From IMG/VR virus record IMGVR_UViG_3300025759_000061, positions 1 through 64,000 of that record: a stretch of DNA of 64,000 bases, one strand, 5' to 3'. Shown piece after piece: positions 16,742 through 57,885 of the stretch; position 1 is the stretch's first letter; every line of letters starts with the position of its first letter. The stretch is from an uncultured virus (IMG/VR IMGVR_UViG_3300025759_000061). Its lineage: Duplodnaviria; Heunggongvirae; Uroviricota; Caudoviricetes. Under the pieces are notes generated by a model. It did not search any database and was not told the DNA's origin. It worked only from the letters and a program-made list of their open reading frames with translations. A program made the translations under genes and the position numbers.

Positions 16742-16815
16742 GCAGGTATAGCATAGTGGCAATGTACTAGCCTTCCAAGCTAAGTAGTGGAGTTCGATTC
16801 TCCATACCTGCTCCA
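16742..16815 (+). tRNA. tRNA-Gly(UCC)
   Basis: GCAGGTA/TACCTGC, loop CT-TCC-AA, U73, CCA. Confidence 0.9.
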
Positions 16816-16963
16816 ATTTTTAAGAGAGACATACAAATGCAACGTAAAATGAAACCAATTATTATAGTTGGATCACCTTGGTTTATCAAAACCGGGACCG
16901 GTGCCTTTGTGTGTGCAGGAATAGACGGGACAGCATTGTAAGCATCCCAACTTCCAGATACAG

Positions 16964-17000
16964 AAGCCCCGGTTGAGAAAATCTCACTGGGGCTTTTTTT
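16964..17000 (+). terminator. Rho-independent terminator after short leader ORF
   Basis: AAGCCCCGGT.TGAGA-AAA-TCTCA.CTGGGGCTT plus T-run. Confidence 0.85.
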
Positions 17001-17004
17001 ATGC

Positions 17005-17050
17005 TTGACACAGTTTCCCAATCTGCTATTATGGGGTCATAGAGAAAGGG
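17005..17050 (+). promoter_or_regulatory. Repeated early sigma70-type promoter
   Basis: TTGACA-N16-TATTAT with TGC before -10, then purine-rich leader; same motif at 51313, 52281, 52590, 53166, 54214, 57896. Confidence 0.8.
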
Positions 17051-17058
17051 AAAAAACG

Positions 17059-17448
17059 ATGTACACATTTGATGAGAACATTTTCAGTGACATGTACAAG
17101 GAAGCTTTTGGAAGCCGTCCACGTAGTCACCGGTTCTATGACCCAGAAACGTCTGCTGATGAAAAGCAGATCATTTGGGATCAGGTTGCAGAAAGTGCAC
17201 AGGATAGCATTAACGAAGAAGAGTGCTTCCACTATGCTCGTGGGATCGACTTCGAAAACCGGATCACCAAGACCATTGCTCTGGGTGCAAAGGATCGTGA
17301 AGATGCCATCCGGTGGATACTTGATGGGGAAGACCTTGATGAGATGGACTTCCGGTATGGTGGTGGTTACATCTGCTTCCACTTCGGTCTGTCGTATGCA
17401 GACTATGAAGCTGAACTGAAGCAGGTTGTTGAGAAGTTTTTCGTCTGA
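17059..17448 (+). CDS. Hypothetical early protein
   Basis: Follows early promoter and RBS; SDMYKEAFGSRPR motif. Confidence 0.65.
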   Translation: MYTFDENIFSDMYKEAFGSRPRSHRFYDPETSADEKQIIWDQVAESAQDSINEEECFHYARGIDFENRITKTIALGAKDREDAIRWILDGEDLDEMDFRYGGGYICFHFGLSYADYEAELKQVVEKFFV

Positions 17449-17901
17449 GAAAGGATTGATGATGGATAATGAATTTGAAGCATACAAAAAGCAGATGCTC
17501 CAAGACCAGTTTGAACGTGGTCAACTGGATCGTCTGACCGGTCTCAATGCACACTACGGGTGTCATTTTGGGATGAGGTCTGAGAAGGAAGAATGTGTGA
17601 AGGAATATATGAGGGGTTATGAAAATCCCCCAGAGGTGGATGATGAAGGTTAAGGATATTGCAAATCGGTATCACTTGGTATCAACACCAGCACCCGGTG
17701 ATGGAACAGTCACCATTGCTGATCTTGCCAAGTACACCAAGATGGAAGGTCACCTTGGACAGCACCATTCAGGTGCATTCCATGCCATCATTGATGAATG
17801 GAAGTATGAACTGGTTGAAGCCCATAACGATTTTTATGATGGTTTCACCATCGATTTCAAGGATGGGTCCAACCTGTCGTATTATGTCTGAGAGGTAGAT
17901 A

Positions 17902-18081
17902 ATGAAGATTAAGCTTGAGTTGTGCCCTGTAGGTCTTGCAGAGGGTCTGATGACCAAAGCCCGTGAGTGGGTTGCACAGTCTCAGATGAAGGATGCAGCC
18001 ATACCTGCTGTGATTGCAGAGTATGAAGCCAACAAACTTGGTTTCACGTTATTTGATTGGAAGGTAGATAATGAAGATTAA
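17902..18081 (+). CDS. Hypothetical protein, paralog 1 (MKIKLEL...AEYEANKLGFT)
   Basis: Manually translated 59 aa ORF; duplicate of next ORF. Confidence 0.6.
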   Translation: MKIKLELCPVGLAEGLMTKAREWVAQSQMKDAAIPAVIAEYEANKLGFTLFDWKVDNED

Positions 18082-18262
18082 GCTTGAGTTAGCACCCAAA
18101 GGTGTTGCAGTGGGTATGATGGAAAAAGGTCTTAAATGGTCTGGTCAATCCAAATGGGGTAATACTGGTGGACATATAAATCTGATTATTGCAGAATATG
18201 AAGCCAACAAACTTGGTTTTACTATGTTTGAGGAAAAGGTTGGTTACGATTATGAAACGTAA
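18071..18262 (+). CDS. Hypothetical protein, paralog 2
   Basis: Shares N-terminus and AEYEANKLGFT with previous ORF. Confidence 0.6.
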   Translation: MKIKLELAPKGVAVGMMEKGLKWSGQSKWGNTGGHINLIIAEYEANKLGFTMFEEKVGYDYET

Positions 18263-18569
18263 GGATTGTATAGTCCAGAGAGAACCGAAAAAAGAACTTG
18301 ACAATCGTTGTATTGCATGTAATGGTTCTGGAAAATACGATCATAATGGGTCACCTAAGTGTGATGCCTGTAATGGAACTGGAAGGAAGATGATCATGAC
18401 GTTGGATGAAGATACTGTTGCAGATGTTGCAGAATTTCTGGAAACACTTCGACGTAGTGGTGAAACTAATATGATGGGAGCAGGTCCATATCTCAAGGAA
18501 GAGTTTGGATTTGACAAATACGAAGCCCGTGATTATCTGTTGAATTGGATGACGAATTACGGGAAGTAA
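18252..18569 (+). CDS. Hypothetical protein with CxxCxGxG zinc motifs
   Basis: CIACNGSG and CDACNGTG; C-terminal LRRSGETNMMGAGPYL. Confidence 0.55.
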   Translation: MKRKDCIVQREPKKELDNRCIACNGSGKYDHNGSPKCDACNGTGRKMIMTLDEDTVADVAEFLETLRRSGETNMMGAGPYLKEEFGFDKYEARDYLLNWMTNYGK

Positions 18570-18574
18570 AATAT

Positions 18575-18649
18575 ACACCGGTAGCTCAGTGGTAGAGCAG
18601 GAGTCTCTTAAACTCAAGGCCGTGGGTTCGACCCCCACCCGGTGTACCA
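18575..18649 (+). tRNA. tRNA-Lys(CUU)
   Basis: ACACCGG/CCGGTGT, loop CT-CTT-AA, CCA. Confidence 0.9.
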
Positions 18650-18659
18650 AAGAATTAAT

Positions 18660-18734
18660 GGGTCGGTAGCTCAGAGGCAGAGCAGGAGTCTTTTAAACTC
18701 TTGGCCGGGATTTCGAAATTCCCTCGACCCACCA
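18660..18734 (+). tRNA. tRNA-Lys(UUU)
   Basis: GGGTCGG/TCGACCC, loop CT-TTT-AA, CCA. Confidence 0.9.
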
Positions 18735-18743
18735 AGTTTATGT

Positions 18744-18817
18744 GAGGGTATAGTGTAGTGGTAACACATCTGCTTCCAAACCAGATGACCGGAGTTCGAT
18801 TCTTCGTACCCTTGCCA
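18744..18817 (+). tRNA. tRNA-Trp(CCA)
   Basis: Loop TT-CCA-AA, G73, C31-C39 mismatch, CCA. Confidence 0.8.
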
Positions 18818-19005
18818 AACTATCAGGATGATAAAAATGCTTGACAATGTAATGATGTTTGTGGTATACAGGAAGGACCCTTTTGTGGTCTACAGCATAC
18901 ATCGTACCTTTGCCGGTGCAAGTGATGTCAAGCAACAGAAGGTATCTGAGGGTGAAGACCCATTGAATGTTGAGACATATGGTCTATATGTAAGAAATTA
19001 AGAAT

Positions 19006-19081
19006 GCTTCTCTGGTGTAGTCGGTCTGCACGTCTGTTTGAAGAGCAGAAAGTCACAGTTCGATTCTGTGGGGAAGCACCA
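19006..19081 (+). tRNA. tRNA-Phe(GAA)
   Basis: GCTTCTC/GGGAAGC, TCTGT-TTGAAGA-GCAGA, CCA. Confidence 0.85.
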
Positions 19082-19098
19082 AAAAAGGTTTTTGTTTT

Positions 19099-19308
19099 AT
19101 GCTGGTTACGGTGACAACAGAAGTGAGACGATGTTATGATTGTCCTCATTTCATTAACCATCCACAAGAAGCCAGTTGTGGATTGGTGCCAAATGGTGGA
19201 TGGGATTATGTGATCAGTCACAGAGTTGCCGAAAAGGAAATTTGGGAAGGTTGTCCCTTGAATAAAGAGGTTGATCATGTCGATGGTAGTTTAAAAATAG
19301 CAAAGTAG
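19099..19308 (+). CDS. Hypothetical Cys-rich protein
   Basis: CYDCPH...C...CPL. Confidence 0.5.
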   Translation: MLVTVTTEVRRCYDCPHFINHPQEASCGLVPNGGWDYVISHRVAEKEIWEGCPLNKEVDHVDGSLKIAK

Positions 19309-19417
19309 CCTGTTGATAATCGAGTGCACGGACAGTAGGGTGAAAGCTTAAGGTAGAACGTCAGATAAGCTCTGGAAATATGGGTTCGATTCCCATCCAA
19401 AGACACAACCAAGGAAG

Positions 19418-19762
19418 TTGATCATGAAGTATAAAGAACGTGAATATCGGATAGTGCCGTCTGAAACCAAAATTAATTGTTATTGGGTTCAGTACAGAGA
19501 CAAATCACGTTTCATTCCAAATTTTTGGAAAACTGATGTTGATTATGAGGGTGACGGTCTGTACATACATTGTGTGAAAATCAACTATCCGGATGGAAAA
19601 TCTGCTGAGAAAAGAATTAGGGAGAAGATGGAAGATCACTCACGTTTCTTCAATAGACAAATTAATGATGAGATAAAAGCTTCTATGTTACGTGCATGGG
19701 CCGGTTCCATTGAGCCACGTAAAGTTCCACCGTTTCTCTTTGATGAAGATGAAAAAGAATAA
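19418..19762 (+). CDS. Hypothetical protein
   Basis: ORF between tRNA genes. Confidence 0.55.
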   Translation: MIMKYKEREYRIVPSETKINCYWVQYRDKSRFIPNFWKTDVDYEGDGLYIHCVKINYPDGKSAEKRIREKMEDHSRFFNRQINDEIKASMLRAWAGSIEPRKVPPFLFDEDEKE

Positions 19763-19763
19763 T

Positions 19764-19837
19764 GGTCCCATCGTCTAAGGGTAAGGCAGTCACCTGATTA
19801 GTGACATATCGGAGTTCGAATCTCTGTGGGACTACCA
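19764..19837 (+). tRNA. tRNA-Ile(GAU), atypical U37
   Basis: GGTCCCA/TGGGACT, GTCAC-CTGATTA-GTGAC, CCA. Confidence 0.75.
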
Positions 19838-19849
19838 AAGACATTTAAT

Positions 19850-19924
19850 GCTCCTGTAGCTCAATGGTAGAGCCGTCTGCTCATAACAGACTGGTTGTTG
19901 GTTCGAATCCAGTCGGGAGCACCA
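19850..19924 (+). tRNA. tRNA-CAU (probably Ile2)
   Basis: GCTCCTG/CGGGAGC, GTCTG-CTCATAA-CAGAC; body resembles Ile2. Confidence 0.8.
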
Positions 19925-19937
19925 TTTTTGAAAGGTT

Positions 19938-20225
19938 ATGATTATGGAAATTATCATGGGTATTGCTGTGTTTGGATTAATTGTTGGAATCGTTGGGTTG
20001 TTATCTAATGAGTTGACATCAAAAGATAGGAAAATAATTATCAAATCGATTTTTCGTAGACCCAATACAGTGGGATACCGTCCCGATGCCTTGGAATTGT
20101 GTGATAAATTCGAAAAGGTCTCTTATGACAAACACTTGTTTTACCGGATGGTTTTCCTTAATCCGATGAAACTCTATGATGATGAAATCATAGAAGCCGT
20201 GAAGGAACACGAAAATGTTGTATGA
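19938..20225 (+). CDS. Hypothetical membrane protein
   Basis: N-terminal hydrophobic helix. Confidence 0.55.
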   Translation: MIMEIIMGIAVFGLIVGIVGLLSNELTSKDRKIIIKSIFRRPNTVGYRPDALELCDKFEKVSYDKHLFYRMVFLNPMKLYDDEIIEAVKEHENVV

Positions 20226-20448
20226 TCTAACAGTGTGGGGGTGGGTTATCTTGGTGGTCACACATCTCTATGCTATCAGTGTTGGTTTTGTCTGGGCCAT
20301 ATTTTCTGCCGTTGGTGGCAATCCGTTCAAAGATTTCATCATAGCAACCTTCTGGCCAGTGTGGTTATTTTTTGATTGGTTGAGTGGATGATGTCTGATT
20401 ATGTATTGAATATGTTGAATGATGACACTAAATAGAATAGAACATGAT

Positions 20449-20524
20449 GCCGGTTGGAAGGTAATGGTGATCTTACATCCCTCATAAGGATGCTAACGTG
20501 GTTCGATTCCACGATCCGGCACCA
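20449..20524 (+). tRNA. tRNA-Met(CAU), elongator-like
   Basis: CATCC-CTCATAA-GGATG, TTCGATT loop, CCA. Confidence 0.8.
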
Positions 20525-20532
20525 AACAGTAT

Positions 20533-20607
20533 TGCAGGGTAGAGCAGAAGCAGCTTGCTTGACTCATAATCAAGAGGTCGGTGGTGCAAGTCCATCCCCT
20601 GCAACCA
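20533..20607 (+). tRNA. tRNA-fMet-like (CAU)
   Basis: TGCAGGGTAGAGCAG...CTCATAA...CCCCTGCAACCA parallels bacterial initiator tRNA. Confidence 0.8.
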
Positions 20608-20658
20608 ATTTTACAGACTGGATAGACCGGTCTTAACACATAACGAAGGGATTCTTCG

Positions 20659-21705
20659 ATGTCTTATGAATATGATTATTTGGTCTTCATTGGCCGATTC
20701 CAACCTTTCCATGATGGTCACAAAGCAGTTGTTGACCGGGCACTGGAACTCTCCGAAAAAGTAATAATTGTCCTTGGCTCACACAACCAGCCAAGATCAT
20801 TCCGTAACCCGTGGACATCACAGGAACGTCGAGAGATGATTCAATCCTGTTATGCTTTTACAGGTGAACATCGTCTGGAGTTTGTGTTCCAAGAAGATTA
20901 CACATATAATCTGGACAAGTGGCTGGCCTCTATTCAGGGTCAGGTAAACCACATCATCCATAAGAAATGGAAAGCTGGTCCAGTCAATATTGGTCTCATT
21001 GGTCACTCCAAGGACTCATCCTCATTCTATCTCAACCTGTTCCCAAGCTGGGGGTCCGTCAATGTCAAGCAAGACATTGTGATGGATGCAACGTATATCC
21101 GTAAGGATATTTTCAATCCCCGTGTCAGAGGTCTGTTCCCATCCCCGAAAATCTCCATGCCAAAATCCATTGTAACGTGGATAGAGTTGTGGATGGATGA
21201 TTGTACTGAGTCGTTTGAGTTCATTCAGGATGAATACCAGCACCTGATCGATTATAACCAGCAGTGGTCCCATTCCCCATATCCACCAACATTCGTCACG
21301 GTTGATGCCATCGTGGTGCAATCTGGTCATATCCTGTTGGTCAAGAGGGGTGCTATGCCCGGTAAAGGTCAGTGGGCATTGCCCGGTGGGTTCGTCAACC
21401 AGTATGAGAAGCTGAAAGATGCTTCCATCAGGGAGTTGAGAGAAGAAACCAAGCTGAAGGTGCCTGTACCGGTCCTGATAGGGTCACTGGTGGACAGAAA
21501 GACCTTTGATGACCCATACAGGTCACAACGTGGTAGAACCATCACAACAGCCTTTTATTTCCATTTGAGAGATGAACCGAAACTGCCAAAGGTTAAGGGG
21601 TCTGATGATGCCGTCCATGCTGAGTGGGTTCCTCTTGGTGAGCTTGATCGTTCTCAAATGTATGAGGATCATTTTGATATGATAGATGACATGGTGAAAC
21701 TATAG
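20659..21705 (+). CDS. nadM: Bifunctional NMN adenylyltransferase/Nudix ADP-ribose hydrolase (NadM-Nudix)
   Basis: GRFQPFHDGH; Nudix box ALPGGFV...IRELREET; DDPYRSQRGRTIT; YEDH. Confidence 0.93.
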   Translation: MSYEYDYLVFIGRFQPFHDGHKAVVDRALELSEKVIIVLGSHNQPRSFRNPWTSQERREMIQSCYAFTGEHRLEFVFQEDYTYNLDKWLASIQGQVNHIIHKKWKAGPVNIGLIGHSKDSSSFYLNLFPSWGSVNVKQDIVMDATYIRKDIFNPRVRGLFPSPKISMPKSIVTWIELWMDDCTESFEFIQDEYQHLIDYNQQWSHSPYPPTFVTVDAIVVQSGHILLVKRGAMPGKGQWALPGGFVNQYEKLKDASIRELREETKLKVPVPVLIGSLVDRKTFDDPYRSQRGRTITTAFYFHLRDEPKLPKVKGSDDAVHAEWVPLGELDRSQMYEDHFDMIDDMVKL

Positions 21706-21746
21706 GGGATAGACCCCGACAACAAACCGTAATAGGAGATATTACA

Positions 21747-23102
21747 ATGCTTATAAACAATCCGGAACACAGAGTTCCATCAAATTTTATCATGGCAGCA
21801 GACAGTTATAAACACAGTCATGGCCAACTGATTGATCCGAAAATCAAGTACATGAATTCATACGTGGAAGGCCGAAAGTCTGATACGTTTGATGACATGG
21901 TTTATTTCGGTCTCCAAGCATATCTGAAGGCATATTTGTCCAAACCAATTACCAAGATTGATGTGGACTATGTAGAGCAAAGATTAAAGATGCATGGTGT
22001 GCCGTTTGACCGGAAGCCGTGGGATGTCATTGTCAATGAATACAAAGGTCATCTCCCACTGATCATTGAAGCAATTGATGAGGGTTCAGTTGTGCCGTTA
22101 GGGACTCCACTGGTACAGGTCCGGAACACTGATAAAAGATTCCCATGGTTGCCAGCCTTTATTGAAACAGCCCTACATCGTGCAATCTGGTATCCATCCA
22201 CGGTTGCCACGGTATCACGTGAGGTCAAGAAGATCATCTATAAGGGACTTCAGGATACATCTGATGATCCGGATGGGCAGATTGCTTTCAAGCTCCATGA
22301 CTTCGGTGGACGTGGTGCATCATCTGGTGAGAGTGCTATGCTGGGTGGTATGGCCCACCTGATCAACTTCATGGGTACAGACACTGTTGAGGCTGTTGAA
22401 GGTGCATATGCATTTTATGAAGAAGAAATGGCCGGGTTCTCAATCCCTGCTTCTGAACACTCAACCGTGACATGCTGGGGTAGGGACCGTGAGTATGAGA
22501 TGTTTGAACATTTCCTTGATACCTATGCCGGTCCCGGAAAGCTTTATGCTTGTGTGTCAGATAGCTATAATATCTGGGATGCTATCAAGGAAGGGTGGGG
22601 TGGCAAGCTGAAAGATAAGGTCAGGTCTGCTGGTGGTACACTGGTGATCCGTCCAGACTCTGGTGATATTGCACAAGGTATGTTGAAAGTATCTGAAGAG
22701 ATTATGGGAGCTTTTGATCAGTACACCGTGAATAGTAAAGGGTACAAAGTGTTTGAGCCGTGTGTTCGTGCCATCTGGGGTGATGGTTGCACACTTGAGA
22801 CCGTTAGATATGCAGTTGCATTCATGAAACTGAACAAGATCAGTCTTGATAACTGGGCTTTTGGTATGGGTGGTGGCCTGCTCCAGAAGGTCAACCGTGA
22901 CGATCTGTCATTTGCAATGAAGACCAATGCAGCATCATATAATGGCAAACAGTGGTTTGATGTTGTGAAAGACCCTGTGACCGATCACTCTAAAGCCTCA
23001 AAGGGTGGTATCCAACCGGGTCCATTCACCACGAGATATGAAAACGGTAAGATGATGAACACCACAACATTTGCAGAAGTAAGGGAAAGAGCCAAATTAT
23101 GA
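21747..23102 (+). CDS. nadV: Nicotinamide phosphoribosyltransferase
   Basis: DSYKHSH, LHDFGGRG, SIPASEHS, VSDSY, IRPDSGD, FGMGGGLLQKVNRD. Confidence 0.95.
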   Translation: MLINNPEHRVPSNFIMAADSYKHSHGQLIDPKIKYMNSYVEGRKSDTFDDMVYFGLQAYLKAYLSKPITKIDVDYVEQRLKMHGVPFDRKPWDVIVNEYKGHLPLIIEAIDEGSVVPLGTPLVQVRNTDKRFPWLPAFIETALHRAIWYPSTVATVSREVKKIIYKGLQDTSDDPDGQIAFKLHDFGGRGASSGESAMLGGMAHLINFMGTDTVEAVEGAYAFYEEEMAGFSIPASEHSTVTCWGRDREYEMFEHFLDTYAGPGKLYACVSDSYNIWDAIKEGWGGKLKDKVRSAGGTLVIRPDSGDIAQGMLKVSEEIMGAFDQYTVNSKGYKVFEPCVRAIWGDGCTLETVRYAVAFMKLNKISLDNWAFGMGGGLLQKVNRDDLSFAMKTNAASYNGKQWFDVVKDPVTDHSKASKGGIQPGPFTTRYENGKMMNTTTFAEVRERAKL

Positions 23103-23974
23103 AGATATTGATAACAGGTGCTGGTGGATACATAGGTAATCAGCTTGCATATTACCTGTCACGTCCGATGAATCATTCTATTGAACTATATGGATATGAT
23201 AAACACCCAGAAAATGTGATACATAGAAATCTATTCAACATGGTATGGAATACTGATTGTAGGTCACATAAATTGATGAAAGCCGTCAGGTACGATTATA
23301 TATTTCATCTTGCAGGGTCTTCATCAGTGCCGGTTTTCAATGTGGACCCACATCTTGCTTATCTCAACACGGTTCAGGTTAATGAATTGGTTGGGGGTTT
23401 GAGTTGTGATCATTTTGTGATGGTATCTTCTGCCAGTGTGGATGTATCAGATAGTCATTATGCAATCAGTAAATTGATGAGTGAGGAATATTTTGACAGA
23501 AAATGGGATGACAGATACACATACACGTATAGATTGCATAATGTTGCTGGTCATATACCATTATGCAATGCTGTTGAGGATCATGAGCCAGAGACACACC
23601 TGATTCCAAATCTGGTTTCAAATAAACCTTTGACAATCAATGGTGATCCTGATATTGTGAGAGATTATGTTCATGTGTATGACGTGTGTAGGGCATTGGC
23701 TGCTGTGATTCACGGTAGATTTCCCAGACTTGGGGAGCCGTGGTATATCGGAACAGGGGTTGGTAGCTCAATCCATGATGTCCTGAAATCATATCACAGG
23801 GTGACCGGAGAGAAGAAGAAGATTTTGATGGGTGATCTTAGGGTGGGTGACCCGTCATTTCAGGTTAATGATGAGGCATCACTGCCATATATGAAGAACC
23901 TTGATGATATCATCATGGACACGATAGAGGGTTATAAGAGAAATCATTGCATATCACCCTTGACAGTGGCATAA
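23099..23974 (+). CDS. NAD-dependent epimerase (GalE-like)
   Basis: ITGAGGYIG, YAISK, EDHEPETHLIP, RDYVHVYD. Confidence 0.88.
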   Translation: MKILITGAGGYIGNQLAYYLSRPMNHSIELYGYDKHPENVIHRNLFNMVWNTDCRSHKLMKAVRYDYIFHLAGSSSVPVFNVDPHLAYLNTVQVNELVGGLSCDHFVMVSSASVDVSDSHYAISKLMSEEYFDRKWDDRYTYTYRLHNVAGHIPLCNAVEDHEPETHLIPNLVSNKPLTINGDPDIVRDYVHVYDVCRALAAVIHGRFPRLGEPWYIGTGVGSSIHDVLKSYHRVTGEKKKILMGDLRVGDPSFQVNDEASLPYMKNLDDIIMDTIEGYKRNHCISPLTVA

Positions 23975-24021
23975 ATCATACTATATCATATTGTGTCCAT
24001 AAATATGGATAGGACAGTAAT

Positions 24022-24097
24022 GCCCGGTTAACTCAGTTGGTAGAGTGCCTGTTTTACATGCAGGATGCCGTTGGTTCGATTCCGACACCGGGCACCA
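24022..24097 (+). tRNA. tRNA-Val(UAC)
   Basis: GCCCGGT/ACCGGGC, CCTGT-TTTACAT-GCAGG, CCA. Confidence 0.9.
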
Positions 24098-24307
24098 TTT
24101 TCATAATATGAGGTTGTTAATGACTAAAGTATTGATAACAGATAACAGAGAACGAGTCTTCCACCCCACGTCGAAAAATCGTGGCAAGGTTTATCTGGCA
24201 GGTTGCAAGTTCTACGGAACTAAGCAGGGTGCCACTTTCAAACCAGATTGTGGTAGGAGATTTCGTGCAGCACTGAGTGCAATGAAGTATTGAATGAAAC
24301 TGACAAT

Positions 24308-24381
24308 GGGGGCATAGTGTAGTGGTAACATGCCTGATTGTCTATCAGACGTTGGGGGTTCGATTCCCCCTGTCCCTGCCA
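24308..24381 (+). tRNA. tRNA-Asp(GUC)
   Basis: Loop TT-GTC-TA, G73 with G1:U72, CCA. Confidence 0.85.
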
Positions 24382-24423
24382 GTTTCCCTAAATACTAATG
24401 AAACCGACTACTAACAAAAAGGA

Positions 24424-24606
24424 ATGAATACAATGGGTGATACACCTAAAGAAGAAGAAGACGTTTCCGGCCCAGCAGTTAACCCATCTACCTCAGAAGG
24501 TGATGATGTCAAAGGTGATGGTGGTCCAACCCCTACACTAGACAAGAAGACCAACATCACTGGTGGTGGTCATGATTGGGATAAAGAGCCAAAGGGTGGC
24601 CGTTAA
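24424..24606 (+). CDS. Small acidic hypothetical late protein
   Basis: CTAAATA promoter near 24388, AAGGA RBS; hairpin terminator near 24657-24690. Confidence 0.55.
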   Translation: MNTMGDTPKEEEDVSGPAVNPSTSEGDDVKGDGGPTPTLDKKTNITGGGHDWDKEPKGGR

Positions 24607-24699
24607 TCCAATCACATAAAGAGCCAAGTTTGGCACTTTAAGTCTTGCAAGTTTAGTTAGGGTGGCATTTTTGTCACCCTAATTTCGTTTACAAACAAT

Positions 24700-25193: not shown

Positions 25194-25258
25194 AGTGGCC
25201 CACCTTTCCGTATATTTAGGTATTGACACGGCTCGAAAAGTCTGATAGCTATATTCAC

Positions 25259-49839: not shown

Positions 49840-50067
49840 ATGCTTAACATATTCGTTCTATCGGCAATCGTGCTGGTATCAAATTCAGGTTGGGTAAGGG
49901 GTGAGAAAATTCACCCAAAGCTTACACCAGTGGTTTTTAACTCGTATCAGGAGTGTAGACTCGAAAGACGTAAAGCCCGTGCCTTGTATCGTGAGCACAA
50001 AGAATATCTGAAAGAGAATTACGGGGTTATCAGAATCTCGTTGAAGTGTACAAAAAAGACTAAATAG
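49840..50067 (+). CDS. Small hypothetical exported protein
   Basis: Hydrophobic N-terminus; TTGACA promoter upstream. Confidence 0.5.
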   Translation: MLNIFVLSAIVLVSNSGWVRGEKIHPKLTPVVFNSYQECRLERRKARALYREHKEYLKENYGVIRISLKCTKKTK

Positions 50068-50082
50068 ATGTAGAAGAATTAT

Positions 50083-50157
50083 TGGACTGTACTCAACTGG
50101 TAAGAGAGCAAGCTGTTAACTTGTTATATGTAGGTTCGAATCCTATCAGTCCAGCCA
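50083..50157 (+). tRNA. tRNA-Asn(GUU)
   Basis: TGGACTG/CAGTCCA, GCAAG-CTGTTAA-CTTGT, G73, CCA. Confidence 0.85.
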
Positions 50158-50163
50158 ATTCAT

Positions 50164-50238
50164 GCAAGCATAGTGTAGTGGGTAACACATCAGTTTGTGG
50201 AACTGATATCACAGGTTCAAACCCTGTTGCTTGTACCA
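50164..50238 (+). tRNA. tRNA-His(GUG), alphaproteobacterial type
   Basis: TCAGT-TTGTGGA-ACTGA; G1:U72, A73, no encoded G-1. Confidence 0.85.
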
Positions 50239-50725
50239 ATTTATTATGAACATGTGAGATATTCAAATGCCCGTCAGTTACTGGGACATCAAAGAAAATA
50301 TCATAAAACGTATACATGATAGAATTCGTCGGTTGACTTATGTTCCAAATCCAGATATTATGGGTCGTGCAACCTATCTCAAGAAGATAGCTCTTGAAAA
50401 CTTCAATCTTCAATCTGATGTCAAAAATCTTATTGAAGCTGAAAACGTGTATTATGAAAAGGTGAAAGATTATGGACAAGAAGTGGTTGAAGAAATCCCT
50501 CAAAATCATTCCTGAATTGAACTTGCCGGTGGAATTCACTGGTGAGGACCTACGGTTTTTGATCAAAGCCCTTGTTGGTGATGCAGATCACCCAAACAAC
50601 TGGGGTACGATGATCAGCCTAGCCAAGAATGATGGTCTGATCCAACCTCTGAACGAGTGGGTTCCAATGAAATCCTACCGGTCACATAACCGGAAAACCC
50701 CAAAATATATCCGTCTTGTTGAGAG

Positions 50726-51316
50726 ATGATTGATCCACCATGCAGACTCATTGTGGTTGTTGGGATGCCGTCCGGTGGTACTAGCTGTGTTGCCGGGACT
50801 CTCACACACAATGGGTTCTATAACAGGGATACGGGTCCACGGGGGTCCTATCAGTCACCACTGCCATTATCATACTGTCAGGGTCTTTGGGGTCTCCCAT
50901 CAAAAGCTCTGGATGAGGATGATATGGTAGTGGTTGGCCAATGGGCATTGGATCACAAACTAGAGGCTCTTGAACGTGGGTTTGATAAAGCCGTCCAAAA
51001 AATGCCGGGTCCACCAATATGGATGCCTGAGATGTTTGGTCCGAATCCTCTTGGCATTAAGATTGAACCCCTGCTGGTATTCAGGGAGCCACGAGAGAAT
51101 GCCGAATCCATAAAGAATGCTCCACATTTCCATTATGTGAGGGATGCTGAAAAACATGCAGCCCGTGGTCAGATCGAAATTCTGAAATTGCACGAAAAAT
51201 ACAACTGGCCTATTTGGAAATTCGGTAAGGATTCTGATATCATAGAATTGGAACGGTTGTTGAATGTACCCTTACCAAACAAGATTTTTAATCCAGACAG
51301 AATAAAAACTGGTTGA
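50726..51316 (+). CDS. Sulfotransferase-like P-loop protein
   Basis: VVVGMPSGGTSCVAGTL; VFREPRENAES. Confidence 0.55.
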   Translation: MIDPPCRLIVVVGMPSGGTSCVAGTLTHNGFYNRDTGPRGSYQSPLPLSYCQGLWGLPSKALDEDDMVVVGQWALDHKLEALERGFDKAVQKMPGPPIWMPEMFGPNPLGIKIEPLLVFREPRENAESIKNAPHFHYVRDAEKHAARGQIEILKLHEKYNWPIWKFGKDSDIIELERLLNVPLPNKIFNPDRIKTG

Positions 51317-51362
51317 CACAGATTCTCTCTATGCTATTATGTAGACATAGAGAGAAAGGAAA
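51313..51362 (+). promoter_or_regulatory. Repeated early promoter
   Basis: TTGACA...TGCTATTATGTAGACATAGAGAGAAAGGA. Confidence 0.8.
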
Positions 51363-51365
51363 GTC

Positions 51366-52271
51366 ATGCAAAACGACAAGAAATTCAAGAAAGCATTGTC
51401 AATCTTCTGTAATGAACAGATTGACAATATGCTGCAATTCATGAATGACAAGATGGGTGCTGGTGGTTTTCTGCCGGTCTATCGTAGTGATGATGGTGAG
51501 AAGATCACCTACCACCTTGTTGAGTCCTATCCCAAGGGATATAGCCGGTCACCTTCACGTGCCGGTGTCCACTTTTCCAAAACCAAGGGAAAGCATCTCT
51601 GGATTCGGATGAACCTGAACCAGTTCTTGAGGAACATGAAGAAAGAGTTTGATACCGGTGAGTATGTGGAAACCTTTTTCACGGAATATGAGCACATCAG
51701 AACTGATCCGGTAATCGGTCACTTCAATGGTCACTGGACCAAGGACCTGATGGGAACCCTAGCACATGAGGTTGCCCACATGGTTGAGCACGGGATCGTG
51801 CCATGGGGTGAGTGGTACAAAAAGGGTGTTTCCGAAAACTCATTCACTGAGAATTTCAACTGGGTCCCCGAAGAGCATATCAAAAACCATAATCCGAAGG
51901 TTGGTAAGAAAACCATTAAGGGTCATGGAATTGCCTTCCAGACGATCTATGCAATTCTCCGTGAAGAGTTCGTCAACGGACACGAATCATTCCAGATGCC
52001 TGCCCTTGAAGAGGTGAAGGTCCGGAAGTCAAAGTGGACAGTCAACAGACGTGGTGCTCTTGCCCGGTATTACCTGAATATGAAAGATGGTTCAGTGATC
52101 CATGCCGGTCATATCCGGACACACAGGACCGGTTACAGTGTATACTCACGGGATGGTGAATTCATTGAAAATCAGGATACCATCAGTGGTGCACGGTTGA
52201 TCCTTGAAGAGGATATCCGGTACAAGCTCTCCATCCGGAAAGAGCAGACTTACGAAACTAAGATTTTCTAA
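51366..52271 (+). CDS. SprT-like HExxH metallopeptidase domain early protein
   Basis: LAHEVAHMVEH...GHGIAFQ. Confidence 0.6.
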   Translation: MQNDKKFKKALSIFCNEQIDNMLQFMNDKMGAGGFLPVYRSDDGEKITYHLVESYPKGYSRSPSRAGVHFSKTKGKHLWIRMNLNQFLRNMKKEFDTGEYVETFFTEYEHIRTDPVIGHFNGHWTKDLMGTLAHEVAHMVEHGIVPWGEWYKKGVSENSFTENFNWVPEEHIKNHNPKVGKKTIKGHGIAFQTIYAILREEFVNGHESFQMPALEEVKVRKSKWTVNRRGALARYYLNMKDGSVIHAGHIRTHRTGYSVYSRDGEFIENQDTISGARLILEEDIRYKLSIRKEQTYETKIF

Positions 52272-52280
52272 AATTAGGGG

Positions 52281-52340
52281 TTGACTTCGGTCAGCCCTTT
52301 TTGCATTATGTGGATATAGAGAAAAGCAGAAAAGGAACGA
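52281..52340 (+). promoter_or_regulatory. Repeated early promoter (variant shared with 54214)
   Basis: GGGGTTGACTTCGGTCAGCCCTT identical at both sites, then CATTAT. Confidence 0.75.
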
Positions 52341-52589
52341 GAAATGAATGACTATGGTGTAAAGACTTTCATGAATAAACTTTGGAGTAAAGCTGCTGGT
52401 AAAAAGATTACCGGACAGACTATTGGGGGTGAGTGGTTTACCGGTACAGTTACAAATGTCCGGACCATGTACGGTATTGATCTTCAGATTCAGGTTGAGA
52501 AGGATGATGGTGATATTGAACTGGTCTCTGGTCTGGATGCTGCCAAGGGTGAACGGTTCCTGACAATTGAGGGGTTGTAAAAATACCTG

Positions 52590-52640
52590 TTGACTCTCAC
52601 CCATGATCTGCTATTATGTAGATATAGAGAGAAGGAAAAA
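52590..52640 (+). promoter_or_regulatory. Repeated early promoter
   Basis: TTGACTCTCACCCATGATCTGCTATTATGTAGA identical to 53166. Confidence 0.85.
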
Positions 52641-52879
52641 AACATGAACATCACAACACTGATCAACATTGCCGTAGCAACCCACACAACCCGGTTTGCT
52701 GCACAGAAGGGTATTTTCATTGATAATATGGAACAGCTTGTTACCATGTTGACGGATGCCGGTCACAAGCTCCAGCAGAATTACGGTGACAGGGTTCTTG
52801 TGGACCACTCAGCATGGGTGACGAAACATGGGGTCATCTACCCGGTTTCCGGATGTAACCTCTAAGAGAGAAAGGATTT

Positions 52880-53155
52880 TTGATGCCACGTAAGACTTAT
52901 GAAGTTGAGAAGCTGGTTAGTTATGTCAATGGGTTCTGTGCTGCCAAAGGTGGATCACAGGATGCTCGTCAAGCCCTGATGGGGATGTTGGAAGATGTTC
53001 TTCGGTCCACTGGTAATTATGGTGGGTTCCGGTATCTGGTTCAGGAAGAACTGAGTGAGATTGACCTACCGGGTATTCACTGGGATGGTAACAATCCAGA
53101 TTTCGTGAACACAGATGGGACACGGGTCCGGTATCTGGGTTTTGCCCAAAATTGA
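52880..53155 (+). CDS. Hypothetical early protein
   Basis: LEDVLRSTGNYGGFRYL. Confidence 0.6.
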   Translation: MMPRKTYEVEKLVSYVNGFCAAKGGSQDARQALMGMLEDVLRSTGNYGGFRYLVQEELSEIDLPGIHWDGNNPDFVNTDGTRVRYLGFAQN

Positions 53156-53165
53156 AAATAAGGAG

Positions 53166-53216
53166 TTGACTCTCACCCATGATCTGCTATTATGTAGACA
53201 TAGAGAGAGAGGAAAG
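53166..53216 (+). promoter_or_regulatory. Repeated early promoter
   Basis: Identical 33-nt core to 52590. Confidence 0.85.
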
Positions 53217-53454
53217 ACATGAAGTTCGAAGTTGGAGAAAAAATTCGGGTGACCGTGTATGAGAATGGTTACTACAAAAGGTCTGGTTATGGTATTGTAA
53301 CCAAGATCAACGAAGAGACTCGTAGGGTTTCTGTTGACTCCAAGGAATTTGGGGGACGTATCCGGTCGTTCTATGAGTGGTCACTCAGTTTGAACAAGGT
53401 TACAAGAAAGCCTCTGCCACACTATTAAATCAACCCTTTGAGAAAGGAATTGCT

Positions 53455-53838
53455 ATGAAAGAGTTTGAAAACATTTTTGAAGCTGCTGATACAGCCGGTC
53501 GGGAAGCCGTGAGCAAACTGGATGTCCGTCCGATGGTGGTTGGTCATGCTGGGGTCTTCGACTCCAAGATCGATCAGACCAAGCCGGTCTACTATGTTGC
53601 TGATGGGGTGTGTGGGTTTGCATGGGTGAACATCAAGCCCGGTAACTCCAAGTTTGCCAACTGGTTGAAGAAGAAGGGTCTTGCCCGTTCAGACAGTTAC
53701 TACGGTGGTGTCACGATCTGGGTGAGTGAGTTCAATCAGTCCATGCAGAAGAAGGAAGCTTATGCATATGCCTTTGCCAAGGTTGTTGACGAAGCCGGGG
53801 TTGTGAAGCAAGCATATGCATCCAGCCGGATGGACTAA
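53455..53838 (+). CDS. Hypothetical early protein
   Basis: GVCGFAWV...QSMQKKEAYAYAFA...SRMD; AAGGA RBS. Confidence 0.65.
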   Translation: MKEFENIFEAADTAGREAVSKLDVRPMVVGHAGVFDSKIDQTKPVYYVADGVCGFAWVNIKPGNSKFANWLKKKGLARSDSYYGGVTIWVSEFNQSMQKKEAYAYAFAKVVDEAGVVKQAYASSRMD

Positions 53839-54279
53839 CAAGTGTGGGGACTCCGGTCCCCATGGCCATAGAAAGGAATTTGAATATGAGCAAAGTTGAT
53901 CAAATAGCCCAAGACATTTATGTTGCTGCCATTTCACTGGGAACTGGACTTGCAGACGTTTCTGATGATGAGCTTCAAGAGCTTTTGAATGCTTGTGCTG
54001 AAATGTGCTACAAGTCTGCTGAAGCTTTCGTGAAATATCAAGATAAGAGAAGGTATAGTGATGCAGAAGATTCTTGAAATTGCCGTGAAGGAACGTCTCA
54101 AAACCCTGATCACTGAACAGTCTATGGGTGAGTGGGATGATAAAACCATTGAAAAGGATGTGGAGTTCTTTTTTGAAGGTCTGAAAGATTTCTTTCCAAC
54201 ATGAAATAAGGGGTTGACTTCGGTCAGCCCTTCTGGCATTATAAGGACATAAAGAGAAAACAGAGAAAGGAAACGAGTT

Positions 54280-54780
54280 ATGGGAATGTATATGTACAAA
54301 GTGACTGGTAAGAAAGTCCTGCTCTCCGATGGTCGTTATGCCCATGTTGCCAAAGCTGCTTACAAACCATTCTTCTACAGCTACAGTGATGATTCTGAAA
54401 AGAAGAACACGAAAATGTACTACAAGACCGGGTGCTACTATGCCGATAAACGTGCCAAGGAAGGTCACATGACCGGTTTGGTCACAGTTGGTACGGATGC
54501 CGGTGATGCAGTGTTTGAGTGGTCTGAGGGGTCCTTCCACGAAGGTATGCTCAACAATGAAGACCGGATGGTCAAGGGTGTGACAGTTGCCGGGAAAAAG
54601 AGGGAATTTACTTGGTTCGACGTTAAGGTCGAGCACGAAGGTAAAACTTTCTACGAACAGATGCTGGGTCGGAATGCTGATGAAGCCTGCTCTGAAGTCA
54701 AGAAGTACCTCTCACGTGAGTTGATGGATGGTGTTGATTGGACCGGGGTTGAGTTCACTGCCCAGCCGATGGGAGCCTGA
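54280..54780 (+). CDS. Hypothetical early protein
   Basis: Behind early promoter at 54214. Confidence 0.6.
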   Translation: MGMYMYKVTGKKVLLSDGRYAHVAKAAYKPFFYSYSDDSEKKNTKMYYKTGCYYADKRAKEGHMTGLVTVGTDAGDAVFEWSEGSFHEGMLNNEDRMVKGVTVAGKKREFTWFDVKVEHEGKTFYEQMLGRNADEACSEVKKYLSRELMDGVDWTGVEFTAQPMGA

Positions 54781-55595
54781 TGAAAAACACAGCCAAGGAA
54801 TTGTTAAGGTATGCCATCTGGGTGATCAGAAATCCAGATGGACACACCAAAGACGAAGTAACCGATGCTGCATGTTCATATCTGGATGATATGTATGAGA
54901 CATACGGTATCCTGAATTATCCGGGAGATGACTGATGAGGATCAAGTATGGGATTGAAACCAATGTGGGTAATCACCATCTGATGTTGACTAACAGAGGT
55001 TGGAGTCGAAAAACCGATGGGTTGTTTTTGACAAGGTTCAAATGGATTGCCGAAAACATCCACAAGAACATGTCCAAAAAGGTTTCATGTGAATTGAAGA
55101 TCATGGAGATTATTGAAAATGAATGAAGCTAAATTCGACACCTATCATATGCTGGAACTGAGAGAGAAATTTGCCGGGAAGGTCTGGTGCTTTGTTCCGG
55201 TAATCAGTTCAAAATATGCAATATGTCATCTTGGAATTGCCATTGCAAATGAGCCGGGATATTCCCCGGTTCCGATAAGTTGGTGTAACTCAGAGGATTA
55301 TGTAGAGGTCTCTGAGATTGCTGATGACCTGAACAAGGTCCAGCTTCGTTTGGGTGAGGATGAAGCCATGAGGATTGAAGTTTCAACCCATGTAGCTCAA
55401 CGGGAAAAGAATGAAGCTGCTTAAGACAGATTGGATGTATTATCCAGCAAAGAGTTTCAGGGGTGGAAAATACAAAATCCACCTCTTGGAAAAGCAACCG
55501 GGTGTTTGGAAGCAACGGTTTGAATATGGCTCCGGTCATGTGACAGAGTGGTGTGCTTCCGGTAAGCCCAATGAAAATAGAATGGAGTTCATATA

Positions 55596-56192
55596 ATGGT
55601 TAAATCACGATTTCTGAAAAGCTTTGCCATTGGTCTGGGTTTGTTGATGACCACTTTTGCCAGTGTCGGTGCAGAAGGTGTGCCAACATTTCACAACGAG
55701 AGCCATGGTGCTTTTGATGTTGTTGGTTACTGGGGTACTACAACCAAACAGCCAACATGCCAGATCAATACACACTATGCTGATAAGAGCTATGTGAGTT
55801 TCGTCAAGAACGTTATTGATGCTGAGTTCTGGATTGAAATCAATAACAAGGAATGGGATTTCACTGGTGGTGGTATTGGGTTTGAGTTTACAACCGATGT
55901 TGAATTCTACAACTATGACAAGACGTTGGTTCACACAATCCAGAGTGCTCCGTCTATCATAGCCACAAAAGATACTGTGCAACTCCGGAAGATGAATGAT
56001 TGGAACGAAAAAGCACAGGACACTTTCGTAAACTTGTTCCAGTCATCATTTTACCTGAATTTCCGGGATGGTGAGAATGTCTTTATGAAGGGTATGAACT
56101 TGAAAGGTTCTCGAAAAGCTGCATCCAGCTTGTGGGATTGTTTGAAAAAATCAACAGATATTATTTTCCCATACCAGACTGGGAATATGTAA
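55596..56192 (+). CDS. Hypothetical secreted protein
   Basis: Signal peptide ending in ASVGA. Confidence 0.6.
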   Translation: MVKSRFLKSFAIGLGLLMTTFASVGAEGVPTFHNESHGAFDVVGYWGTTTKQPTCQINTHYADKSYVSFVKNVIDAEFWIEINNKEWDFTGGGIGFEFTTDVEFYNYDKTLVHTIQSAPSIIATKDTVQLRKMNDWNEKAQDTFVNLFQSSFYLNFRDGENVFMKGMNLKGSRKAASSLWDCLKKSTDIIFPYQTGNM

Positions 56193-56211
56193 AGTCACTA
56201 AATATAGACAT

Positions 56212-56301
56212 GGAAGATTAATCCGGACGGCTCCGGGCACTGCCTTGAAAACAGATGGCACCTTTGTAGGGTGTGGGGTTCGACACCTCAGTCTTCCACC
56301 A
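56212..56301 (+). tRNA. tRNA-Ser(UGA)
   Basis: GGAAGAT/GTCTTCC, loop CT-TGA-AA, long variable arm, A73. Confidence 0.85.
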
Positions 56302-56307
56302 AGTTTT

Positions 56308-56394
56308 GGAGAGTAAACTACCAAGGTTGGTAGGCTGACCTGCTAAGTCAAGTGCACCGAAAGGTGTGGGCTTCGATTGCTCTGCTCTCCACCA
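56308..56394 (+). tRNA. tRNA-Ser(GCU)
   Basis: GGAGAGT/GCTCTCC, TGAC-CTGCTAA-GTCA, long variable arm, A73. Confidence 0.85.
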
Positions 56395-56918
56395 TTATCA
56401 TGAGGATTAGATTATGATAGCAAAACACTACACAGTTGAACACATGGTATGGGAACATTGGTGGGAAGAAACAGTGGTTACTGGACTCTGCCATATTGAA
56501 GTTTTTTATCACGGTGGTGGAAGTTTGAAGCATATTGCTGAAGGTACTTTCACATTTTCTGATGATGGTAGAAATAAATTTCATACAGTGTTTGGTGAGA
56601 TATCATGTGATACATCAGGTGTGAGTGGTATTCATTTGCTTCGTGTTGGGAGTTTTGCTAATGACCAAGAAGCTTAAGACATTTGGGTGGGGTGATGGTC
56701 GGAAAGAGTGGATAGTTGCAGCCACTACAAAGAAGAGTGCTGCCGAATCCTTCGGGATAACGATGCATGAGTTTCGGAACTATGCCAGTGAAACTGGTAA
56801 TGATGCTGAAATTGAGTTAGCCACGTCTGAGCCGGGTAAGGTTTTCAGATCACCAATTTGCCTATTCAAAGGTAAAGAATACAACTCACGATTCGATAAA
56901 GAATAAGGTCAAGGAAAA

Positions 56919-57791
56919 ATGCTCCCTTTCAAAAAATGGAATTCTCTACAAGAGGCCCGTGCCTCTGATGATGTTCTATATCATGCTACCAGTGAGTATG
57001 TTGTAATCCAGATACTAAAATCGAATTCGTTCAAGCTAGTTCCAGACATTGCAGTTGGTGCAGATGCTGGGCTTGGTAATAGCTCCAAACGTAAAATCTG
57101 GTATCTAAGCACAACACGTCATAAGCTTGGGGGTTACCACAAAGATAATACATGGGGGGTCATGCTGAATCTTGATGGCAACAGAATATCACATAACAAC
57201 AAGATTGTGGCTGTTGATTATTGGGGGGCCAGTTTTGCAGCCGTGGACAGGTCAAAAATGGAAGCAGAAGATAGAGTGCTTTCAGCCAAACCAGAATTAA
57301 AACCGGCAACAAAATTCATCAGGTCTATACATGTCTTGCCTAAATCGAACTGGGTTTCTGATGATCATGAGAAGCAGAGACTCCGTGACATTATGATGTT
57401 AGCAAAGAAAAAAGGTATTCCTCTTTTTCATTATGACGACAGAGAAAATTGGTTGGTACAAAAAAATCCAATTAAGTTGGATATGAACGATTTGAAAAAG
57501 CAAGATAAATCGATTAATACCTCTACTAGACTTGGAAGAAAAGATAAGGGTATTGGTGGCTTGATGGAATTGTTAGTTGCACCTAAGACCACTAAGAACT
57601 TTTCTGACTATGCTAAAAAATGGTTGGATAGAATGAAATATTATGCACATGATTACGAGACTCAGATGTCTGCCGATTTTCATAATGCAAAAACGTCTGA
57701 TGAACTGAAAAGACTCATTCAGGTAATGCACAAAAAGAAGCTGTATTCCCAAAAAGACCTACAAGATTATCTGAAAAAAAAGTGGACGTAA
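56919..57791 (+). CDS. Putative internal virion protein with ADP-ribosyltransferase-like motifs
   Basis: MLPFKKWNSLQE N-terminus; LYHAT...YLSTTR...EAEDR. Confidence 0.5.
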   Translation: MLPFKKWNSLQEARASDDVLYHATSEYVVIQILKSNSFKLVPDIAVGADAGLGNSSKRKIWYLSTTRHKLGGYHKDNTWGVMLNLDGNRISHNNKIVAVDYWGASFAAVDRSKMEAEDRVLSAKPELKPATKFIRSIHVLPKSNWVSDDHEKQRLRDIMMLAKKKGIPLFHYDDRENWLVQKNPIKLDMNDLKKQDKSINTSTRLGRKDKGIGGLMELLVAPKTTKNFSDYAKKWLDRMKYYAHDYETQMSADFHNAKTSDELKRLIQVMHKKKLYSQKDLQDYLKKKWT

Positions 57792-57796
57792 AATAA

Positions 57797-57885
57797 GGAA
57801 GGTAAACCAGCCGGGGTGCTGGCACTGCTTGGAAAGCAGTTGGTACGGGTAACCGTATGTGGATCGGGACCACTGCCTTCCACCA
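57797..57885 (+). tRNA. tRNA-Ser(GGA)
   Basis: GGAAGGT/GCCTTCC, ACTGC-TTGGAAA-GCAGT, long variable arm, A73. Confidence 0.85.

Follow-up and report, generated by a model that had tools for sequence, protein, structure and literature searches.

The stretch of DNA analysed here (hereafter the window) comprises the first 64,000 nucleotides of the 118,833-bp record IMGVR_UViG_3300025759_000061 of an uncultured virus (G000), and it contains not a single GCG or CGC trinucleotide, against 464 copies of each expected under a first-order Markov model of both strands. Both words are equally absent from the whole of G000 and from G001, the IMG/VR contig of the same phage, where the same type of model predicts 1,188 copies over 161,735 bp; they are missing on both strands and in every frame, between genes, within open reading frames (ORFs) and in transfer RNA (tRNA) genes. 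Motif counts, motif positions and the contrast with relatives are direct observations, and from them we consider it likely that selection at the DNA level removed GCG/CGC together with about 30 further motifs, and that the tRNA genes complied through minimal changes that preserve pairing, some of them at identity positions.

The window encodes proteins of a T4-like myophage (T4-type portal, scaffold, Gp23 capsid, clamp, clamp loader, UvsW, UvsY, and SbcCD), the capsid protein sharing about 63-67% identity with its counterparts in Methylophilales, Pelagibacter, Stenotrophomonas, and Synechococcus myophages; no relative at the nucleotide level was found in the phage collection. Since G001 (161,858 bp) is rated complete, bears a 123-bp terminal repeat and is 99.99% identical to G000, the phage genome is circularly permuted and about 161.7 kb long, with 42% guanine plus cytosine (GC), and G000 represents about 73% of it. 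The full-length stretch was present in runs of two separate freshwater studies, both flagged as possible source samples, and pieces identical to it occurred in one run (X7) of a third study; runs holding only a small share of the stretch were not used as habitat evidence. This recurrence across studies, together with the G001 contig, ruled out an assembly artefact or a synthetic construct.

The ban was found in none of 179 related loci. Searches with the major capsid protein returned 80 loci among viral contigs (identity of at most 76%; GCG observed/expected 0.57-1.39) and 80 among metagenome contigs (at most 77%; 0.52-1.95), the latter without tRNAs. The NAMPT search returned the same phage (L084) and 19 other loci, all 19 with GCG, and the gene adjoining the Ser tRNAs, when used as query, matched the same phage only. 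The relative most used in the following comparisons, G002, holds 326 GCG and 401 CGC in 115.7 kb at 31.6% GC. Moreover, when contigs of four other runs were compared, one run (X10, labelled marine) yielded a relative at about 88-95% nucleotide identity over positions 16000-25900, and none of the 33 substitutions listed creates GCG or CGC, where only 1.38 would be expected.

An earlier note on this DNA had proposed that selection acts on the DNA sequence rather than on codon usage, and this was borne out by the absence of the motif regardless of frame and strand, by the 363 of 499 ORF-internal GCG/CGC copies in G002 that straddle codon borders, and by a protein composition in which Ala (5.8%) and Arg (4.5%) remain at normal levels with the Ala codon GCG and the Arg codon CGC unused. 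A cause at the codon level was ruled out by the frame-independence and the unaltered protein composition. A cause at the RNA level, such as a ribonuclease cutting GCG, is less parsimonious, since GCG and CGC would both have to be banned in RNA, and is further disfavoured by the co-banned palindromes, which point to DNA. Proteins would evade the ban by synonymous codons. We regard it as extremely improbable that the loss reflects mutational bias instead of selection, for instance methylation followed by deamination of GCG: an exact zero among about 1,190 sites lies beyond the reach of such a bias, which would not yield paired compensating changes in tRNA stems either, and no encoded methyltransferase was found, even though GTG/CAC and TG/CA are somewhat raised in the way that it predicts (GTG zero-order observed/expected 1.32 against 0.90 in G002; TG odds ratio 1.35 against 1.14). 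The mild GTG/CAC excess suggests that C-to-T change was a common route by which GCG was lost.

The purge is not restricted to GCG/CGC. Over the full genome, under the first-order model, CCWGG has no copy (283 expected) and GGAGG/CCTCC none (141 expected), and zero counts extend to 29 minimal six-base words, each expected 8 or more times, among them RGATCY, CAGCTS, GRGCYC, GGTACC, CTGCAG, GCATGC, CCCGGG, GACGTC, AGTACT, and AGGCCT. About 30 motifs besides GCG/CGC are thus missing, mainly classic Type II restriction sites, and two more are nearly absent (CCGAG, one copy; CGAGG, two copies). Of the 617 different REBASE sites counted, 69 are missing although expected at least 8 times, and 31 of these 69 contain GCG/CGC; among the 64 six-base palindromes, 29 are absent and the remainder are normal or raised (TGATCA 109, TCCGGA 75, ACCGGT 62). 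Missing words that equal known restriction specificities include CCWGG, RGATCY, GRGCYC, CYCGRG, and many 6-mers, and the REBASE copy consulted has no enzyme for GCG, GGAGG, CCGAG or CGAGG. As a side observation, AAGGAG is rare (10 copies against 59 expected), and with GGAGG/CCTCC absent the full Shine-Dalgarno core is unusable by ribosome-binding sites; CCGG, TCCGGA, ACCGGT, and AAGCTT are over-represented 3-5 times.

The known 4-bp sites GCGC, CGCG, and CCGC cannot account for a complete loss of GCG, because 348 of the 727 GCG copies in G002 fall outside all three, and an agent with 3-bp specificity is therefore implied. We propose that selection on double-stranded DNA would purge every GCG/CGC and the approximately 30 short motifs, mostly Type II sites, and that the agent for GCG would be a nuclease (host restriction or similar) with an effective 3-bp specificity, a host nuclease being the simplest idea. 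Neither a DNA methyltransferase nor a cytosine-modification pathway was found in a Pfam scan of 215 ORFs, and no hydroxymethylase gene was found in the phage by Pfam scans. Since no recognisable pathway of this kind is encoded, the missing target sites are probably the main protection against DNA-cutting defences.

As an attractive alternative, a nuclease of the phage itself could shred GCG-rich host DNA and spare the phage, in which the lack of GCG would serve to tell self from non-self, in place of the modified cytosine of T4. The tRNA-His described below suggests an alphaproteobacterial host, and phage tRNAs with U34 suit a host richer in GC, so that the many U34 tRNAs of this phage fit a host above its own 42% GC; there GCG/CGC would abound, and to shield it by methylation would cost the host dearly. 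The phage, in which hydroxymethylase and methyltransferase genes were not found, also encodes small nucleases of the GIY-YIG, HNH, and PD-(D/E)XK types. No phage nuclease could be tied to GCG, however, and a link of the 136-aa GIY-YIG protein to T4 endonuclease II was dropped, as this protein had no match in the PDB, T4 endonuclease II included. Furthermore, the roughly 30 other banned motifs resemble an ordinary footprint of multi-enzyme restriction, which one phage nuclease does not explain, and we hold this alternative to be unlikely.

The tRNA genes cannot use synonymous codons; the RNA sequence itself would have been changed, with stems rebuilt by compensation and both pairing and GC kept. 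The phage carries 29 tRNAs, which serve 19 amino acids (Tyr is the one left out), mostly with U34 anticodons and in all 29 cases with an encoded CCA; ARAGORN with default settings found 20 of them in the window and 26 in G000, and Rfam the same 20 in the window. The 29 genes (2,224 nt, 52.3% GC) contain no GCG/CGC, against 34.9 copies expected from their own dinucleotides (Poisson p of about 1e-15). As comparators we used 80 tRNAs of normal GCG content, 28 from G002 and 52 from four other related contigs, which hold 156 copies of GCG/CGC and at least one copy in 62 of the 80 (G002: 51 copies, 19 tRNAs with at least one; other contigs: 105 copies, 43 tRNAs). These copies concentrate in the acceptor stems (41 of 156); D, anticodon, and T stems carry others, and 9 involve the discriminator. 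The other banned words are likewise absent from the phage tRNAs, whereas the comparators contain 17 CCWGG, 22 GGAGG/CCTCC, and 15 CCGAG/CTCGG. Stem pairs in the phage are 58.8% G:C, 30.7% A:U, and 10.5% G:U, against 56.9%, 32.0%, and 11.1% in G002, and compensated change is illustrated by tRNA-Leu(UAA), with an acceptor of GTCCCTA / TAGGGAC where the G002 counterpart has GCGCGCA / TGCGCGC.

The earlier note had listed unusual ends for the Ser, Asp, Glu, Gly, and initiator-like tRNAs and attributed them to the ban. All five sequence details read as stated. The attribution is supported for Gly, initiator-like, and Asp, and probably for Ser, since in comparison with GCG-bearing relatives the changes coincide with GCG/CGC sites in these four; it is not supported for Glu, where they do not. 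The claim that the purge overrides conserved positions is consequently supported in part, for a few weak or moderate determinants and not across the board. In the proposed mechanism, the usual recognition set spells GCG or CGC at four places, and the least costly position would be given up each time: 3:70 in Gly, C1 and G4:C69 in the initiator-like tRNA, C72 in Asp (whose key G73 is kept), and the weaker G73 in Ser.

In tRNA-Gly(UCC), which indeed starts with GCAGG, the acceptor reads GCAGGTA / TACCTGC-U, where C70-G71-C72 is present in 4/4 comparator tRNA-Gly and a GCG start in 3/4. The bacterial tRNA-Gly identity set, as excerpted from PMC9976931, comprises U73, G1-C72, C2-G71, G3-C70, C35, and C36, and thus itself spells GCG and CGC; five of these elements are present in the phage tRNA, and the sixth, the cheapest position (3:70), is A3:U70, a minimal edit that fits the ban. 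Similarly, tRNA-Asp(GUC) has GGGGGCA / TGTCCCT-G-CCA, with G73 kept and G1:U72, against C72-G73 in 3/4 comparators. G73 belongs to the bacterial Asp identity set with G10, G34 U35 C36, and C38 (PMC9976931, in excerpt); only C72 has been altered, again a minimal edit that fits the ban.

The third tRNA with a CAU anticodon, the initiator-like one, has the acceptor TGCAGGG / CCCTGCA-A, where its single counterpart in G002 has CGCGCTG / TGGCGCA-A with a C1xA72 mismatch. The changes C1 to U and 4:69 to A:U are exactly the edits that remove CGC(1-3), GCG(2-4), and CGC(69-71), with 2:71, 3:70, and A73 kept. Among the formylase determinants given in the excerpt of PMC9976931, C1xA72 is major, and A73, G2-C71, C3-G70, and G4-C69 are minor; the unpaired C1xA72 is replaced here by a U1:A72 pair.

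The three Ser tRNAs all end in ...TCC-A-CCA, as the earlier note had read them. According to PMC9976931 (excerpt), the bacterial tRNA-Ser identity set consists of G73 (moderate for Escherichia coli seryl-tRNA synthetase), C72, G2-C71, R4-Y69, and a large variable region, G73 acting also as an antideterminant against the leucyl- and tyrosyl-tRNA synthetases (LeuRS and TyrRS). In the phage, 3/3 retain G1:C72, G2:C71, R4:Y69, and the long variable arm, and 3/3 carry A73. With CCA encoded, C72-G73-C74 would read CGC, and A73 thus probably fits the ban; of the eight comparator tRNA-Ser, five have C72-G73, and one each U72-G73, C72-U73, and U72-U73, with A73 in none. In view of both roles of G73, A73 is a real concession and prompts one to ask what keeps these tRNAs from being mischarged. 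The altered tRNAs would, in our proposal, still be charged correctly.

ARAGORN with default settings did not pick up the three Ser genes, nor did Rfam at the gathering threshold, E<=1, or E<=10; they surfaced only with ARAGORN -ps80, among 91 candidates. Each folds as a cloverleaf in which the variable arm is long and a D stem of 5-6 bp is closed by a 4-nt loop containing GG, where a standard D arm has a stem of 3-4 bp and a loop of 8-11 nt; since the D arm is ordinary in the Ser tRNAs of G002, the remodelling is specific to this phage. The poor detection, the unusual D arms, one weak anticodon stem, and the T loop UGCAAGU of the initiator-like tRNA could indicate that the three Ser-like genes, perhaps together with the initiator-like one, are relics in decay or without function, in which A73 and U1 would be free of cost and uninformative on the strength of selection. 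We consider this quite improbable, as the paralogs keep one cloverleaf in which 18 of 30 pairs have changed on both sides, all end in CCA with G1:C72, G2:C71, and R4:Y69 intact, lie between genes within the tRNA region, and with the anticodons UGA, GCU, and GGA jointly read all six Ser codons. On the covarying pairs and the complete codon coverage, the three genes are treated here as presumably functional.

Not every unusual end can be assigned to the ban. Both Glu tRNAs do end in T-A-CCA (U72-A73), but the proposal that this is a product of the purge was refuted by the comparators, on the criterion that the earlier note itself had set, since 2/2 tRNA-Glu (G002 and L102) have U72-A73 at normal GCG content; U72 of tRNA-Trp likewise occurs in 3/3 comparators. 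tRNA-His(GUG) has the acceptor GCAAGCA / TGCTTGT-A-CCA and the D loop AGUGGGUAA. In an alphaproteobacterial group, histidyl-tRNA synthetase (HisRS) does not read G-1 but relies on the anticodon together with U72 and A73 (PMC3064791; PMC3937112, both in excerpt), and the phage tRNA shares every feature of that type (no templated G-1, A73, G1-U72, and a D loop of 9 nt); it differs in being phage-encoded, and the relative G002 has G73 with U72. A BLAST search with tRNA-His returned two phage records only, and the single phage tRNA-His it found, from an Ochrobactrum phage (82%), is a weak lead; a 32-base tRNA-Thr word common to this phage and G002 had no exact match in the genome contigs searched for a host. 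The tRNA-His type speaks for an alphaproteobacterial host with a HisRS independent of G-1, and warns that E. coli rules are not suited to judging every tRNA position.

Host rules therefore also shape these tRNAs, and it could be argued that the odd acceptor ends reflect how tRNAs are recognised in the host lineage, or what is habitual in this phage group, and would exist without the ban. Besides Glu, Trp, and the alphaproteobacterial-type His, a U73 is found in tRNA-Gln of G002 and in 2/8 comparator tRNA-Ser, and G1:U72 occurs in 11/80 comparator tRNAs, against 6/29 in the phage. However, the comparators mostly carry GCG/CGC exactly at the changed sites (Gly 4/4, initiator-like 1/1 in G002, Asp 3/4, Ser 5/8), no comparator tRNA-Ser has A73, and the edits seen are the minimum needed to abolish the motif; as a general account, this alternative has a low probability.

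Several points nevertheless weigh against DNA-level selection as the cause of the altered tRNA ends, or against the agent proposed for it. The Glu U72/A73 and the U72 of Trp and His are, as judged from the comparators, features of lineage or host and not products of the ban. C72-G73 is seen in 0/29 phage tRNAs against 9/80 comparators, a difference that taken alone is weakly significant (about 0.03), and 'ancestral state' is a loose term for comparators as distant as these, G002 sharing 38 of 177 ORFs at a median identity of 44%. The Ser genes lie under every threshold of the tRNA detectors, the UGA one having three Watson-Crick pairs only in its anticodon stem, and the U73 of two comparators indicates that the Ser discriminator is unfixed in this group. 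Three G:C pairs in the anticodon stem and A11:U24 are features of initiator tRNAs; the initiator-like tRNA has A11:U24 and lacks the three G:C pairs, as does its G002 copy, and has G at position 55 in its T loop, so that its initiator role is uncertain. Moreover, the REBASE copy within Biopython contains no enzyme with a bare GCG site.

We tentatively suggest, as one possibility and not the favoured expectation, that this genome is the footprint of a natural system that reads three base pairs, GCG, and makes even one site intolerable in 162 kb, with tRNA recognition rewired as a result. Such a system may belong to the host, as a defence nuclease, or to the phage, as a shredder of host DNA, and the Ser tRNAs without G73 may escape mischarging through their remodelled D arm, in a setting of Leu tRNAs without a long arm and no Tyr tRNA.

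The features are collected in Table 1. With regard to the Leu tRNAs, all three (UAG, UAA, and CAA, the third at 70462-70538 of G000) are 76-77 nt long, with a variable loop of 4-5 nt and a class I shape, without the long arm normal for bacterial tRNA-Leu; class I-shaped tRNA-Leu also occur in G002, L087, L088, L096, and L102.

Table 1. Position and basis of the features in the window (64,000 nt).
Feature	Position	Strand	Basis
Window of T4-like myophage, zero GCG/CGC, CCWGG, RGATCY, GGAGG/CCTCC, and many 6-bp sites	1..64000	.	Motif counts, T4-type genes
tRNA-Ala(UGC) and tRNA-Pro(UGG), motif-free, CCA encoded	16241..16531	+	ARAGORN, comparator alignment
tRNA-Gly(UCC): G1:C72, C2:G71 kept; A3:U70; U73	16742..16815	+	ARAGORN, comparators
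tRNA-Lys(CUU) and tRNA-Lys(UUU)	18575..18734	+	ARAGORN
tRNA-Trp(CCA): G1:U72, G73	18744..18817	+	Comparators
tRNA-Phe, tRNA-Ile(GAU), and two further CAU tRNAs (19850-19924, 20449-20524)	19006..20524	+	ARAGORN, Rfam
Initiator-like tRNA(CAU): U1:A72, G2:C71, C3:G70, A4:U69, A73	20533..20607	+	Sequence, comparators
tRNA-Val(UAC)	24022..24097	+	ARAGORN
tRNA-Asp(GUC): G73 kept, C72 to U (G1:U72)	24308..24381	+	Sequence, comparators
tRNA-Leu(UAG), 76 nt, short variable loop, class I shape	48299..48374	+	ARAGORN, sequence
tRNA-Glu(UUC): G1:U72, A73	48467..48544	+	ARAGORN, comparators
tRNA-Glu(CUC): G1:U72, A73	49238..49312	+	ARAGORN, comparators
tRNA-Thr(GGU) and tRNA-Asn(GUU)	49427..50157	+	ARAGORN
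tRNA-His(GUG) without templated G-1 (base -1 is T): G1:U72, A73, 9-nt D loop	50164..50238	+	Sequence
tRNA-Ser(UGA), non-canonical class II: C72-A73-CCA, 5-6 bp D stem, 4-nt loop, weak anticodon stem	56212..56301	+	ARAGORN -ps80, folding
tRNA-Ser(GCU), non-canonical class II: C72-A73-CCA, long D stem	56308..56394	+	ARAGORN -ps80, folding
tRNA-Ser(GGA), non-canonical class II: C72-A73-CCA, long D stem, T loop AUCGGGA	57797..57885	+	ARAGORN -ps80, folding
tRNA-Leu(UAA), 76 nt, short variable loop	59991..60066	+	ARAGORN

Two further tRNA-like elements were observed. One, at 113620-113710 of G000 (L083 9620-9710), has an acceptor stem and a standard T arm without CCA, and its 'anticodon' stem runs to 10 bp, closed by a loop of 14 nt (Rfam 34.6 bits; folding z = -3.2). 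The other, at 24698-24778 of the window, is weak (Rfam 26.7 bits, under the cut-off) and combines an acceptor stem, U73, and CCA with a T arm that matches the one in tRNA-Asn exactly, its D and anticodon arms not being clear. Directly upstream of the first tRNA cluster, at 15570-15980, lies a gene for a 136-aa RF-1 domain protein (peptidyl-tRNA hydrolase or release-factor-like). A cluster of sugar-nucleotide and glycosyltransferase genes at 34432-47122 of the window encodes a GT10 fucosyltransferase, GT1, HAD and nucleotidyl transferase proteins, an FkbM methyltransferase, UDP-glucose dehydrogenase, and epimerases, with the virion, the host surface or DNA as candidate targets. The family B DNA polymerase is encoded by two adjoining ORFs of 474 and 366 aa (L081 12473-14994; G000 about 76473-78994), which may reflect a split gene, an intein or intron, or a frameshift.

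Site avoidance is a textbook anti-restriction strategy, usually partial and visible through codon choice, and the loss of a whole trinucleotide points beyond it to a selective agent of 3-bp specificity that is not in the enzyme catalogues checked. The ban further amounts to a natural mutagenesis of tRNAs, in which Gly 3:70, Ser 73, and initiator 1:72 and 4:69 were given up, and Asp G73, Gly 1:72 and 2:71, and Ser 1:72 and 2:71 were kept; the tRNA-His type, in turn, narrows the host to alphaproteobacteria with a HisRS not needing G-1. Our searches of the open-access literature brought up neither a phage genome that lacks a whole trinucleotide nor a case in which site avoidance had shaped tRNA genes.

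Restriction-site avoidance has reportedly been seen in T7 and in Bacillus phages. phiX174, devoid of GATC, is a further example (PMC5014478, in excerpt). The phage described here resembles these cases in that short words, many of them Type II sites, are missing on both strands and in any frame, and differs in the depth and breadth of the avoidance, with a 3-bp word at 0 of about 1,190, some 30 motifs missing from a 162-kb genome, and tRNA genes reshaped. A protein able to read bare GCG is known from M.HhaI, in which deletion of a five-residue loop converts the specificity from GCGC to GCG (PMC2790894, in excerpt). By analogy, a 3-bp reading would be biochemically plausible, with the difference that the M.HhaI variant is engineered and only methylates. 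The extensive tRNA complements that T4-like phages and other big phages carry may offset a mismatch of codon usage with the host, and the 29 mostly U34 tRNAs for 19 amino acids in this 42% GC genome are of that kind; unlike in those sets, the tRNA genes here stand under a ban on DNA words, with a remodelled D arm in Ser and Leu tRNAs without a long variable arm.

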